Sequence record: NC_005856.1
DNA: 64,000 bases
Strand: one strand, 5' to 3'
Source of the DNA: Escherichia phage P1
In this document: positions 207 through 3,468 of the stretch, piece after piece
Layout: each line of letters opens with the position of its first letter
How positions within the stretch are numbered: position 1 is the first letter of the stretch
Notes under the pieces: generated by a model
Database searches by the model: none
The model's input: the letters and a program-made list of their open reading frames with translations, nothing else
Told to the model about the DNA's origin: nothing
Translations under genes and position numbers: made by a program

Positions 207-428
207 ATGGGATATTCAACTGCTAAAGTGTCCACTCATCTTGAGCTTGAGAAAAACCGTGGTTACTGGCGGGCAAAAGGGTTTGATCGTGATAGTTGCC
301 AACTGTCATTATCGCGCGGTGAAGAGAAAATAGAACGCACGCGCGGTCGCTGGCGTTTCTATGACGAGAACCATAAACAGGTAAAGGCAGAGCCGATCCT
401 GTACACTTTACTTAAAACCATTATCTGA
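207..428 (+). CDS. Hypothetical small protein (73 aa) immediately upstream of cre
   Basis: ATG at 207 preceded by GAGG 6 nt upstream; stop TGA 426-428 lies 8 nt before the cre ATG; no recognisable domain, so it may be non-coding leader sequence. Confidence 0.3.
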   Translation: MGYSTAKVSTHLELEKNRGYWRAKGFDRDSCQLSLSRGEEKIERTRGRWRFYDENHKQVKAEPILYTLLKTII

Positions 429-435
429 GTGTTAA

Positions 436-1467
436 ATGTCCAATTTACTGACCGTACACCAAAATTTGCCTGCATTACCGGTCGATGCAACGAGTGATGA
501 GGTTCGCAAGAACCTGATGGACATGTTCAGGGATCGCCAGGCGTTTTCTGAGCATACCTGGAAAATGCTTCTGTCCGTTTGCCGGTCGTGGGCGGCATGG
601 TGCAAGTTGAATAACCGGAAATGGTTTCCCGCAGAACCTGAAGATGTTCGCGATTATCTTCTATATCTTCAGGCGCGCGGTCTGGCAGTAAAAACTATCC
701 AGCAACATTTGGGCCAGCTAAACATGCTTCATCGTCGGTCCGGGCTGCCACGACCAAGTGACAGCAATGCTGTTTCACTGGTTATGCGGCGGATCCGAAA
801 AGAAAACGTTGATGCCGGTGAACGTGCAAAACAGGCTCTAGCGTTCGAACGCACTGATTTCGACCAGGTTCGTTCACTCATGGAAAATAGCGATCGCTGC
901 CAGGATATACGTAATCTGGCATTTCTGGGGATTGCTTATAACACCCTGTTACGTATAGCCGAAATTGCCAGGATCAGGGTTAAAGATATCTCACGTACTG
1001 ACGGTGGGAGAATGTTAATCCATATTGGCAGAACGAAAACGCTGGTTAGCACCGCAGGTGTAGAGAAGGCACTTAGCCTGGGGGTAACTAAACTGGTCGA
1101 GCGATGGATTTCCGTCTCTGGTGTAGCTGATGATCCGAATAACTACCTGTTTTGCCGGGTCAGAAAAAATGGTGTTGCCGCGCCATCTGCCACCAGCCAG
1201 CTATCAACTCGCGCCCTGGAAGGGATTTTTGAAGCAACTCATCGATTGATTTACGGCGCTAAGGATGACTCTGGTCAGAGATACCTGGCCTGGTCTGGAC
1301 ACAGTGCCCGTGTCGGAGCCGCGCGAGATATGGCCCGCGCTGGAGTTTCAATACCGGAGATCATGCAAGCTGGTGGCTGGACCAATGTAAATATTGTCAT
1401 GAACTATATCCGTAACCTGGATAGTGAAACAGGGGCAATGGTGCGCCTGCTGGAAGATGGCGATTAG
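436..1467 (+). CDS. cre: Cre tyrosine site-specific recombinase (343 aa)
   Basis: Protein MSNLLTVHQNLPALPVDATSDEVRKNLMDMFRDRQAFSEHTWKMLLSVCRSWAAWCKLNNRKWFPAEPEDVRDYLLYLQARGLAVKTIQQHLGQLNMLHRR...MVRLLEDGD is recognisably P1 Cre; adjacent to loxP. Confidence 0.97.
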   Translation: MSNLLTVHQNLPALPVDATSDEVRKNLMDMFRDRQAFSEHTWKMLLSVCRSWAAWCKLNNRKWFPAEPEDVRDYLLYLQARGLAVKTIQQHLGQLNMLHRRSGLPRPSDSNAVSLVMRRIRKENVDAGERAKQALAFERTDFDQVRSLMENSDRCQDIRNLAFLGIAYNTLLRIAEIARIRVKDISRTDGGRMLIHIGRTKTLVSTAGVEKALSLGVTKLVERWISVSGVADDPNNYLFCRVRKNGVAAPSATSQLSTRALEGIFEATHRLIYGAKDDSGQRYLAWSGHSARVGAARDMARAGVSIPEIMQAGGWTNVNIVMNYIRNLDSETGAMVRLLEDGD

Positions 1468-1517: not shown

Positions 1518-1829
1518 ATGAGAAAGGATTTCAACATCGACGGAAAATATGTAGTGCTGTCTGTAAGCACTAATATTCAGTCGCCAGCCGTCATTGTCAC
1601 TGTAAAGCTGAGCGATAGAATGCCTGATATTGACTCAATATCCGTTGCGTTTCCTGTCAAAAGTATGCGTAGTGCTGAACATTTCGTGATGAATGCCACC
1701 GAGGAAGAAGCACGGCGCGGTTTTGCTAAAGTGATGTCTGAGTTTGGCGAACTCTTGGGTAAGGTTAACAATGTCCTTTCAATCAGTTCAGCAAGGTCCA
1801 AAGCGTTAACAGCTTCCATGATGAAATAA
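1518..1829 (+). CDS. cra: Hypothetical protein, cre-adjacent (position of P1 cra)
   Basis: 103-aa ORF directly downstream of cre; symbol assigned by position from memory of the P1 map; no domain recognised. Confidence 0.45.
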   Translation: MRKDFNIDGKYVVLSVSTNIQSPAVIVTVKLSDRMPDIDSISVAFPVKSMRSAEHFVMNATEEEARRGFAKVMSEFGELLGKVNNVLSISSARSKALTASMMK

Positions 1830-1855: not shown

Positions 1856-1961
1856 GCACAAAAGAGCGGGTTTGTATTCCGCATCCAATCAATCAAGAAG
1901 GAGTATAGCACACAGGTACTGAAGTGAAAAAATGTGATTCGCGATAAACAAAATATCTATC

Positions 1962-1991
1962 ATTGCTCTAATTGATTGCTATAATTGAGCC
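1962..1991. promoter_or_regulatory. Two overlapping C1-operator-like 17-mers with a TATAAT -10 (ref promoter/operator region)
   Basis: ATTGCTCTAATTGATTG (1962-1978) and ATTGCTATAATTGAGCC (1975-1991) resemble ATTGCTCTAATAAATTT; TATAAT at 1980-1985; position (~2% of a ~94 kb genome) fits the map-unit operator naming I recall for P1 (Op2). Confidence 0.6.
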
Positions 1992-2045
1992 GCAGTTTTT
2001 GTCAACTACGAAGACGTTGCCATTACTTCACTCCTTGACATCATT

Positions 2046-2071
2046 GGCGGCCATTAGGCCGCCTTTTTTTT
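2046..2071 (+). terminator. GC-rich hairpin plus T8: intrinsic-terminator-like structure in the ref 5' leader
   Basis: GGCGGCC-ATTA-GGCCGCC (2046-2063) followed by TTTTTTTT (2064-2071), ending 5 nt before the ref ATG at 2077. Confidence 0.55.
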
Positions 2072-2076
2072 GCCAT

Positions 2077-2637
2077 ATGAAAACAATCGAACAAAAAATT
2101 GAACAGTGCCGCAAGTGGCAGAAGGCAGCCAGAGAACGAGCGATCGCTCGGCAACGGGAGAAGTTGGCTGATCCGGTCTGGCGAGAATCTCAATATCAGA
2201 AAATGCGGGATACTCTCGACCGCCGTATCGCTAAACAGAAAGAGCGCCCACCAGCCAGCAAAACGCGGAAAAGCGCGGTAAAAATAAAATCTCGTGGCTT
2301 GAAGGGGAGAACACCAACGGCGGAGGAACGGCGCATCGCCAATGCTCTTGGCGCTCTCCCCTGCATTGCCTGCTATATGCATGGAGTAATATCTAATGAG
2401 GTGTCTCTGCACCATATCGCCGGTCGTACCGCGCCGGGTTGTCATAAAAAGCAATTGCCACTTTGTAGATGGCACCACCAGCATGCAGCTCCGGCTGAAG
2501 TAAGAGAAAAATACCCATGGCTGGTCCCTGTTCATGCCGATGGTGTGGTTGGAGGCAAGAAAGAATTCACCTTGCTGAACAAGTCAGAGATGGAGTTACT
2601 GGCTGACGCCTATGAGATGGCAAACATCATGCACTAA
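2077..2637 (+). CDS. ref: Ref, RecA-dependent HNH endonuclease (recombination enhancement function), 186 aa
   Basis: ATG at 2077 gives 186 aa (MKTIEQKIEQCRKWQKAARERAIARQREKLADP...); charged N-terminus then a Cys/His-rich HNH-like core (CIACYMHGV...LHHIAGRTAPGCHKKQLPLCRWHHQH); preceded by C1 operators. The table ORF 1972-2637 starts at a TTG inside the operator and is not the likely start. Confidence 0.85.
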   Translation: MKTIEQKIEQCRKWQKAARERAIARQREKLADPVWRESQYQKMRDTLDRRIAKQKERPPASKTRKSAVKIKSRGLKGRTPTAEERRIANALGALPCIACYMHGVISNEVSLHHIAGRTAPGCHKKQLPLCRWHHQHAAPAEVREKYPWLVPVHADGVVGGKKEFTLLNKSEMELLADAYEMANIMH

Positions 2638-2696: not shown

Positions 2697-2826
2697 CATC
2701 ACACGCCCGGTACGGATGGATCCCTTTTCAAATATTCCATGGACGGCACAGTCTGAGTACCGGGCGCTACCTTCAGTTGTATTGCTAAGCCGCCGCTGGT
2801 GGCTTTTCTTTTTTGTAGGGGGCGCT

Positions 2827-3468
2827 ATGGATAAGAAAATATGCGTTGTTTCGATGAGCGTCGGCAAACCGGCGTCAATGACTGCTGCATGGATCAATAA
2901 CGAGCTGATAATGGCTGAGCGGACCAGCTACCCTGAACGCCGCCGCGATATGGAACTCCAGCTGCTGCGCGAATTGCGAGAAAAAGAGGAAAAGGGTTTT
3001 ATCGTGCTGGTGGAAGAGGAAAACAGCTTTATTACTGGACGAGTTGGCCAGCGTGTAAGGTTGCGTGATCCCTTCATGAACGGTAGACCGGTACTGATTG
3101 AAGCAATGCAGATTTACAAGGAATTGGAACGCCAGAAAGCGATCAAGTTACCGCGCAAGGAATCCGGCAAATACATCCTCCACCAAAGCATCTTCGATTC
3201 CGAACATGACAAAAAAGGCGATGAATTTTTCAACATCAACTGGAGCGAAATAACGACAGAGCACGTTCTGACGTTGTTATGCTGCTTCGCAACGGAATAC
3301 AACAACGTTGCAAACTCCGACTACATCAGGGCAATGGCTGGAGAAGTTGAGCCACGCCAGGAACCATCGTTACTAAGTCCACTGATTAACATAATTCGCG
3401 GCACACAGAGACTTGCGGAAAAAAGCGTTCCACATGGAATCTTAACTGGAAAGGGAAACTATTTTTAA
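2827..3468 (+). CDS. mat: Particle maturation protein candidate (213 aa from ATG 2827; longest ORF begins 2680)
   Basis: ORF downstream of the composite promoter; ATG 2827 preceded by a G-rich Shine-Dalgarno (TAGGGGG); starts at 2680 or 2716 would lie inside or too near the promoter; name assigned by position from memory. Confidence 0.5.
   Translation: MDKKICVVSMSVGKPASMTAAWINNELIMAERTSYPERRRDMELQLLRELREKEEKGFIVLVEEENSFITGRVGQRVRLRDPFMNGRPVLIEAMQIYKELERQKAIKLPRKESGKYILHQSIFDSEHDKKGDEFFNINWSEITTEHVLTLLCCFATEYNNVANSDYIRAMAGEVEPRQEPSLLSPLINIIRGTQRLAEKSVPHGILTGKGNYF

Follow-up and report, generated by a model that had tools for sequence, protein, structure and literature searches.

A terminator-like hairpin in the ref leader of bacteriophage P1 and of relatives with C1-type operators

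In the trp, his and leu leader attenuators of enterobacteria, expression depends on how often RNA polymerase reads through an intrinsic terminator placed between promoter and first gene. With the lambdoid early terminators tL1 and tR1, which N/nut antitermination overcomes, a terminator separates a lytic-cycle gene from a promoter under repressor control, and rnTrpL of Sinorhizobium is a short terminated leader RNA with a stable fold that could act in trans (PMC6614838). The leader of the bacteriophage P1 ref gene resembles each of these systems in the features named. The nearest precedent concerns ref itself: the title of Windle, Laufer and Hays (1988, J Bacteriol 170:4881-4889) reports "attenuator-antiterminator control" of the gene.

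Three later papers on Ref (PMC4713147, PMC3973344, PMC10695390) name C1 (two of the three) and H-NS (PMC4713147) as controls of ref; the main text of all three leaves the terminator out, and the 1988 paper appears in their reference lists only. In full-text searches, P1 ref termination or attenuation surfaced solely as reference-list citations, and no work was found that combines "ref gene", "phage P1" and "terminator". The P1vir RNA-seq paper is silent on ref, and the literature search found no Term-seq or RNA 3'-end data for P1.

The GenBank entries of Windle et al., M23246 and M27041, cover the ref regulatory region, and M23246 maps to 1808-2063 of the sequence analysed here, ending at the last base of a hairpin just upstream of ref. 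As this hairpin is the only plus-strand candidate and M23246 ends at its stem, we infer that it is the "attenuator" of 1988. The ref leader terminator is already known, and the original prediction from the P1 sequence is a correct rediscovery of a described element; it named no earlier account of the hairpin as a regulatory element, and the 1988 title corrects it on this point. What the comparative evidence from this analysis adds is compensatory change in the stem, linkage to C1-type operators and a parallel arrangement before mat, with possible overlap with the content of the 1988 paper. The remaining value of the locus lies in the mechanism of read-through, the comparative support and the parallel design before mat.

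Anatomy of the ref leader

The window, by which we mean the whole 64,000-nucleotide stretch of the P1 record NC_005856.1 that was analysed, was 100% identical over 1830-2700 to the P1 records AF234173 and OP279344 (Table 1). The ref product matched the profile PHROG 2321 ("Ref-like RecA filament endonuclease") over residues 1-186 of 186, and Ref homologues carry PF16786. AF234173 annotates no terminator at the ref leader, nor anywhere in the first 14 kb of the record. The original prediction had named cra as part of the upstream transcript; the gene between cre and ref is c8, and cra lies upstream of cre. A minus-strand open reading frame that spans the hairpin (2535-2041, 164 aa) was rejected as an antisense artefact, judged by its composition.

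Table 1. Positions of features at the ref locus and of strict-scan terminator sites in the window. Arrows (>) give the direction of minus-strand features.
Feature	Position	Strand	Remarks
loxP	window's first bases, within the site		
cra	207-428		upstream of cre; AF234173 annotation
cre	436-1467		AF234173 annotation
c8	1518-1829		between cre and ref; AF234173 annotation
Promoter P2ref	1957-1985	+	-35 1957-1962; -10 TATAAT 1980-1985; "promoter 2 for ref" in AF234173
C1 operator Oref, ATTGCTCTAATTGATTG	1962-1978	+	between P2ref -35 and -10; protein_bind in AF234173
ref leader RNA before terminator	1992-2045	+	predicted 5' stem-loop 1992-2020, then CU-rich single-stranded stretch
Candidate antiterminator strand GUUGCCA	2016-2022	+	pairs with UGGCGGC 2045-2051; predicted, weak
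Promoter P1ref, predicted	2017-2044	+	TTGCCA (-35 2017-2022), 16 nt, TGaCATCAT (-10 2039-2044)
Terminator hairpin GGCGGCC-AUUA-GGCCGCC	2046-2063	+	from sequence, fold and comparison
Stem arms	2046-2052/2057-2063	+	7 G-C pairs
Loop ATTA	2053-2056	+	
U8 tract (T8)	2064-2071	+	directly 3' of stem
Spacer GCCAU	2072-2076	+	five bases, U-tract to ATG
ref ATG	2077-2079	+	
ref	2077-2637	+	186-aa RecA-dependent HNH nuclease; CDS in AF234173
Strict-scan site, ref leader	as hairpin and U8 tract	+	
Strict-scan site	1855>1835	-	
Strict-scan site	49767>49742	-	

A hairpin with a T8 run ending five nucleotides before the ref ATG had been predicted, and its coordinates proved exact (2046-2071, with the ATG at 2077). 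A consensus scan flagged it as terminator-like, with seven G-C pairs, and the RNA folding that had been proposed as a check gave -16.2 kcal/mol (z = -3.0 against dinucleotide shuffles). A strict scan of both strands of the 64-kb window for perfect stems of at least six pairs, with at least five GC and at least seven T in eight, returned three sites, one of them the ref leader hairpin, compared with 0 in 50 shuffles. Between the C1 operator and the ref ATG, the hairpin with its T8 was the sole plus-strand terminator-like structure. On the minus strand no T-run follows the stem, and thus the element is unidirectional. It has the features expected of an intrinsic terminator: a G+C-rich stem of seven pairs, a four-nucleotide loop, a U-tract on the transcribed strand and pairing that has been kept in evolution. 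The 1988 account of the gene reportedly includes a terminator-like dyad immediately ahead of its start codon.

Reading of the sequence found no purine-rich Shine-Dalgarno in the 20 nt preceding the ref ATG, in agreement with the earlier remark that no good one was present. The U8 tract may also act as a U-rich translation enhancer for this Shine-Dalgarno-less start.

The C1 operator and TATAAT noted upstream of the hairpin are annotated in AF234173 as Oref and P2ref. The -10 of P2ref is preceded by TGc, forming an extended -10, and transcription is expected to start at about 1992. The resulting leader is predicted to form the 5' stem-loop listed in Table 1, followed by a CU-rich stretch that contains a conserved CUCCYUGAC. 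As a whole, the 80-nt RNA 1992-2071 folded at -23.4 kcal/mol (z -3.85), and 0 of 200 shuffles were equally stable.

The second promoter, P1ref, is annotated as "predicted" in AF234173 and had 9/12 matches in a consensus scan. Its -10 ends one base 5' of the hairpin stem, so P1ref transcripts are expected to start at about 2049-2053, within the 5' arm, and so to be without the terminator hairpin; when folded, RNAs with a 5' end at 2050 or 2052 indeed did not form it. The original prediction that there was no room for a separate promoter therefore holds for the five nucleotides after the U-tract but not for the sequence before the hairpin, where the predicted P1ref ends.

Several other motifs were seen in this region. 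CGATAAA, described as an H-NS nucleation motif by Ronayne et al. 2016 (PMC4713147), occurs at 1942-1948 on the plus strand, about 14 bp upstream of Oref, and nowhere else in the intergenic region do P1-type sequences vary as much as in the stretch around it. Two copies of the motif TGATTGCTATAATT lie on the plus strand, upstream of c8 (~1484-1497) and at P2ref (~1973-1986). The c8-proximal copy resembles a second extended -10 promoter; the record puts Pc8 at 1394-1425.

Conservation in P1-type loci and diverged relatives

The P1-type set comprised 80 IMG/VR loci encoding Ref proteins 77-100% identical, of which 79 were analysed, giving 48 distinct upstream sequences. Oref was conserved in 48/48 of these. 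Across the 79 loci the stem was essentially invariant, with the loops ATTA, ATCA and TAAA, and the spacer before the ref start took the forms GCCAT, GACCAT and ACCTT. The T-run was kept in almost all relatives, at a length of 7-10, with UUUUUAUU in the locus L099.

We compared segments by the fraction of variable columns across 58 aligned, distinct P1-type sequences. Variability was lowest in the stem (14%), followed by the T-run plus spacer (31%), the operator plus -10 (33%), codon positions 1 and 2 of ref (41%), the leader (46%), third codon positions of ref (54%), the loop (75%) and the upstream intergenic DNA (82%). Stem variants GGCCGCT and GGCCGTT yield G.U pairs, and so pairing is preserved only in plus-strand RNA. 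Natural indels in the T-run and spacer shift the frame, which excludes both a leader peptide and an in-frame N-terminal extension of Ref from TTG 1972, a candidate considered because the frame is open. The search for a leader peptide likewise found the frame broken by indels and no start codon with a Shine-Dalgarno.

Ref-family proteins were gathered by protein search down to about 45% identity, with loci taken from GTDB genomes, IMG/VR and assemblies. In Klebsiella aerogenes and Salmonella phage-plasmids, which have a Ref 65-68% identical and NinX-like genes upstream instead of cre/c8, the order was a C1-type operator, TATAAT, a leader of ~60 nt, a hairpin, U7-8 and 10-13 nt to an ATG or GTG. 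The operator, -10 and start-region layout of P2ref was kept in these relatives, the operator counterpart being ATTGCTCTAATAwTTAT; the P1ref -10 was missing.

The hairpin of the Klebsiella/Salmonella loci is GACGGUC-UUCG-GACCGUC or the same stem with a UACG loop, both UNCG tetraloops. Compared with P1, both members of two stem pairs differ (A-U for G-C, U-A for C-G), and one locus had a U.G intermediate. In an 11-sequence alignment, 77/77 stem cells were paired, compared with 14-71% when partners were slid by 1-3 columns, and three G.U stem variants occurred across the alignment. When whole leaders of 12 sequences were folded with RNAalifold, the terminator hairpin was the only consensus structure; the 5' stem-loop of the P1 leader (1992-2020) was not conserved across clades. 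With few independent compensatory events (one clade split plus three wobble variants), the covariation is supportive but not overwhelming.

In the Pantoea-type loci L086 and L180, a C1-like operator precedes GCCGCC-UCCG-GGCGGC and U7, which lie some 100 nt ahead of the start. Here the operator-terminator module precedes a conserved ~100-nt leader (which includes GCGGGCATAAGCCGGATTGCTCGGGGTGAAAACATCCTGACCGGCAAG) and then the ref ATG, compared with a gap of 5 nt in P1. The order of promoter, terminator and start codon held in three lineages beyond P1. A terminator was found in 0/12 Ref loci that have no C1-like operator, with 220-260 nt upstream of the gene examined; these came from Buttiauxella, Enterobacter, Pantoea, Leclercia, Raoultella, Klebsiella chromosomal prophages and other sources. 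Among the loci examined, the ref leader terminator was therefore present only where a C1-type operator was present. At the level of sequence comparison, these patterns show a hairpin that has been selected as a plus-strand RNA structure and is linked to C1-type ref operators and promoters.

A further pairing was observed in the Klebsiella/Salmonella leaders L098-L103, where the sequences flanking the terminator can pair with each other and sequester a Shine-Dalgarno-like GGGA or GGAGA (AUCCU with GGGAU in L102, UCUCC with GGAGA in L103). In the same leaders ACAGU at the GUG start is a possible pairing partner for a 5' segment, ACUGU. This pairing may constitute an extra translational layer in those loci; P1 has no equivalent.

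Probable attenuation of ref and alternative readings

We favour, at a probability of roughly 80%, the reading that the element is a Rho-independent terminator in the ref 5' leader which attenuates transcripts from P2ref and, besides, halts read-through from cre-c8. Once C1 no longer represses the promoter, RNA polymerase would initiate at P2ref at about 1992, make the 80-nt leader and mostly stop in the U8 tract at ~2068-2071. Only the read-through fraction would reach ref, where translation would have to start without a Shine-Dalgarno. The weak predicted P1ref, starting inside the hairpin, may contribute ref transcripts. Under this scheme Ref nuclease would be low in amount and late, and the terminator would in addition shield ref from the cre/c8 transcription that is active in the lysogen. 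Termination in the ref leader, its efficiency and the mode of read-through are what we infer here.

Since the extended -10 of P2ref is perfect, the promoter should be strong once C1 leaves. Published RT-qPCR found that ref RNA rose 73-fold after thermal inactivation of C1, and that ref expression was delayed relative to other derepressed genes (PMC4713147), which fits a damped and delayed expression of ref. Ref lowers lysogenisation 40-fold (PMC4713147), and this cost provides a rationale for tight control. The original prediction had read the hairpin as limiting the nuclease or as ending the cre-cra transcript: the terminator structure that both readings assume stands on composition, statistics and comparison, limitation of the nuclease is plausible, and ending of the upstream transcript is possible.

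The candidate antiterminator helix of P1, GUUGCCA with UGGCGGC, is predicted to form co-transcriptionally (P ~1.0), at a stage when the 3' arm of the terminator has yet to be transcribed. Pairing as good arose, however, in 32 of 300 shuffled leaders, and the helix is absent in the natural variant L060; with this helix neither above chance nor conserved, the control of ref may be conditional or may be a constitutive damping. A counterpart in the Klebsiella/Salmonella leaders, ACUGUCA with UGACGGU, overlaps the terminator and is above chance, being equalled in 1-4 of 300 shuffles, but it is absent in L097. RNAalifold found no antiterminator helix in the cross-clade consensus of 12 leaders. Another P1 candidate, UGUCAA (2000-2005) with UUGACA (2035-2040), was rejected, as the helix does not overlap the terminator. 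An Rfam search of 1400-2900 in permissive mode gave no riboswitch or cis-regulatory family at threshold. An RNA-binding protein is possible as the sensor of the leader, and simple leakiness, a bypass promoter and factor-dependent antitermination are all possible modes of read-through.

We considered whether the chief role of the hairpin is to end the cre-c8 unit as its 3' terminator, insulating ref, with its place downstream of P2ref incidental. There is no canonical plus-strand terminator between the c8 stop (1829) and the ref leader hairpin, and at the 1835-1855 hairpin a T-run is present solely on the minus strand. The ref leader site is thus the first canonical, strong plus-strand stop after cre and c8, and it should insulate ref from upstream transcription. 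An insulator would serve equally well upstream of the promoter, however, and in the Klebsiella/Salmonella and Pantoea-type loci the upstream genes differ (NinX-like, dUTPase-linked) while the terminator still lies between a C1-type promoter and ref. Because this position is kept despite unrelated upstream genes, insulation alone does not explain the placement, and we regard insulation as the main role as unlikely. It is compatible with attenuation, the difference being one of emphasis.

It is considerably less probable that P2ref and the terminator form a C1-controlled sRNA gene of ~80 nt with a target of its own, ref being expressed mostly from P1ref. The RNA 1992-2071 has the matching architecture, with a 5' stem-loop, a CU-rich single-stranded region, the terminator hairpin and a U8 tail of the Hfq-binding type, and its fold is sRNA-like (z -3.85, 0/200 shuffles as stable); P1ref is predicted to start inside the hairpin, and several sRNA families gave weak sub-threshold Rfam matches here. 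Yet the best of those matches scored 22.9 bits against a gathering threshold of 41 and they are driven by the terminator, which alone is conserved across clades, without the 5' stem-loop or linker. P1ref is not conserved in relatives either, and the module always lies immediately before ref. Least credible, to the point of being very improbable, is that the inverted repeat is a DNA-level palindrome bound by a protein, or an element acting in translation only. GGCGGCCATTAGGCCGCC is indeed a perfect palindrome except for the loop, ref has no Shine-Dalgarno and the U-tract abuts the start codon. Against a DNA site, the natural variants are G.U-compatible only as plus-strand RNA, the stem sequence has been replaced wholesale with pairing kept, the UUCG and UACG tetraloops of relatives are a feature of RNA stability, and the T-run is always retained on one side only. 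A purely translational role is at odds with the Pantoea-type hairpin, which at ~100 nt from the start codon is too far away.

Under the preferred reading of a terminator that attenuates P2ref transcripts, ref would be controlled at four levels or more, by the C1 operator, by H-NS binding, by the terminator and through the missing Shine-Dalgarno. The setting of the Ref level is of biological relevance, given that Ref harms the host, cuts lysogenisation and drives phage-antibiotic synergy (the last reported in PMC4713147). Reporters of ref, deletions of the region and readings of ref RNA levels should allow for the leader terminator.

Neighbouring elements and comparison with known systems

The mat gene is annotated at 2716-3468 on the plus strand, but its annotated start is probably too early and ATG 2827, preceded by GGGGG, is the likely start. 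PHROG 1837 aligns from residue 38 at profile position 1, and anchored extraction across loci revealed natural frameshifting indels in 2806-2826 (G4/G5 and T-run length). The sequence that follows ref, when aligned crudely over all loci, was too heterogeneous for a codon-position signal in mat. A terminator-like hairpin, AAGCCGCC-GCT-GGTGGCTT, lies at 2787-2805 on the plus strand with the tail TTCTTTTTT; with mat starting at 2827, this hairpin and tail would belong to the mat leader, some 12 nt ahead of the ATG. The hairpin is downstream of a C1 operator and the promoters Pmat and LPmat, the same design as at ref.

P1 thus has the cassette of operator and promoter, leader, terminator and gene at both ref and mat, and three or more diverged lineages have it at ref. 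A tentative extension, to which we give little weight, is that this cassette is a conserved design of P1-like phage-plasmids, or else that the 80-nt leader is a C1-controlled regulatory RNA. If true, the cassette could imply a further mechanism of read-through, such as a phage or host antitermination activity or a timing device.

The minus strand carries further elements. A strong terminator, AGCCTGGCT-CCTTG-CCAGGCT followed by T8 (1855>1835), lies just past the c8 stop and faces leftward, so that the c8-ref intergenic region has an outward-facing terminator at each end. A promoter-like site at 1930>1902 (TTTTCA, 17 nt, TGcTATACT) would give an RNA of ~68 nt, 1895>1828, that folds at -23.2 kcal/mol (z -3.1) and is partly antisense to the 3' end of c8. 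A second promoter-like site, 2672>2645 (TTGTCA, 16 nt, AATAAT; 10/12 matches, in the region 2628-2672), abuts Omat, a C1 operator that the record assigns to the minus strand and that precedes the Pmat -35 by ~20 bp. From this site an antisense RNA to ref could arise under C1 control and would end at the 1855>1835 terminator.

The likenesses with which we began have their limits. Compared with rnTrpL, the P1 ref leader is not conserved in sequence beyond its terminator, and a role in trans is hypothetical here. The lambdoid N/nut systems differ in that no boxA/boxB-like nut site was seen on the plus strand when the leader was read by eye. P1 is not known to encode an N-like antiterminator. In contrast to the trp, his and leu attenuators, the ref leader has no leader peptide and no conserved, mutually exclusive antiterminator, and its terminator lies only 5 nt from the start codon of the gene.
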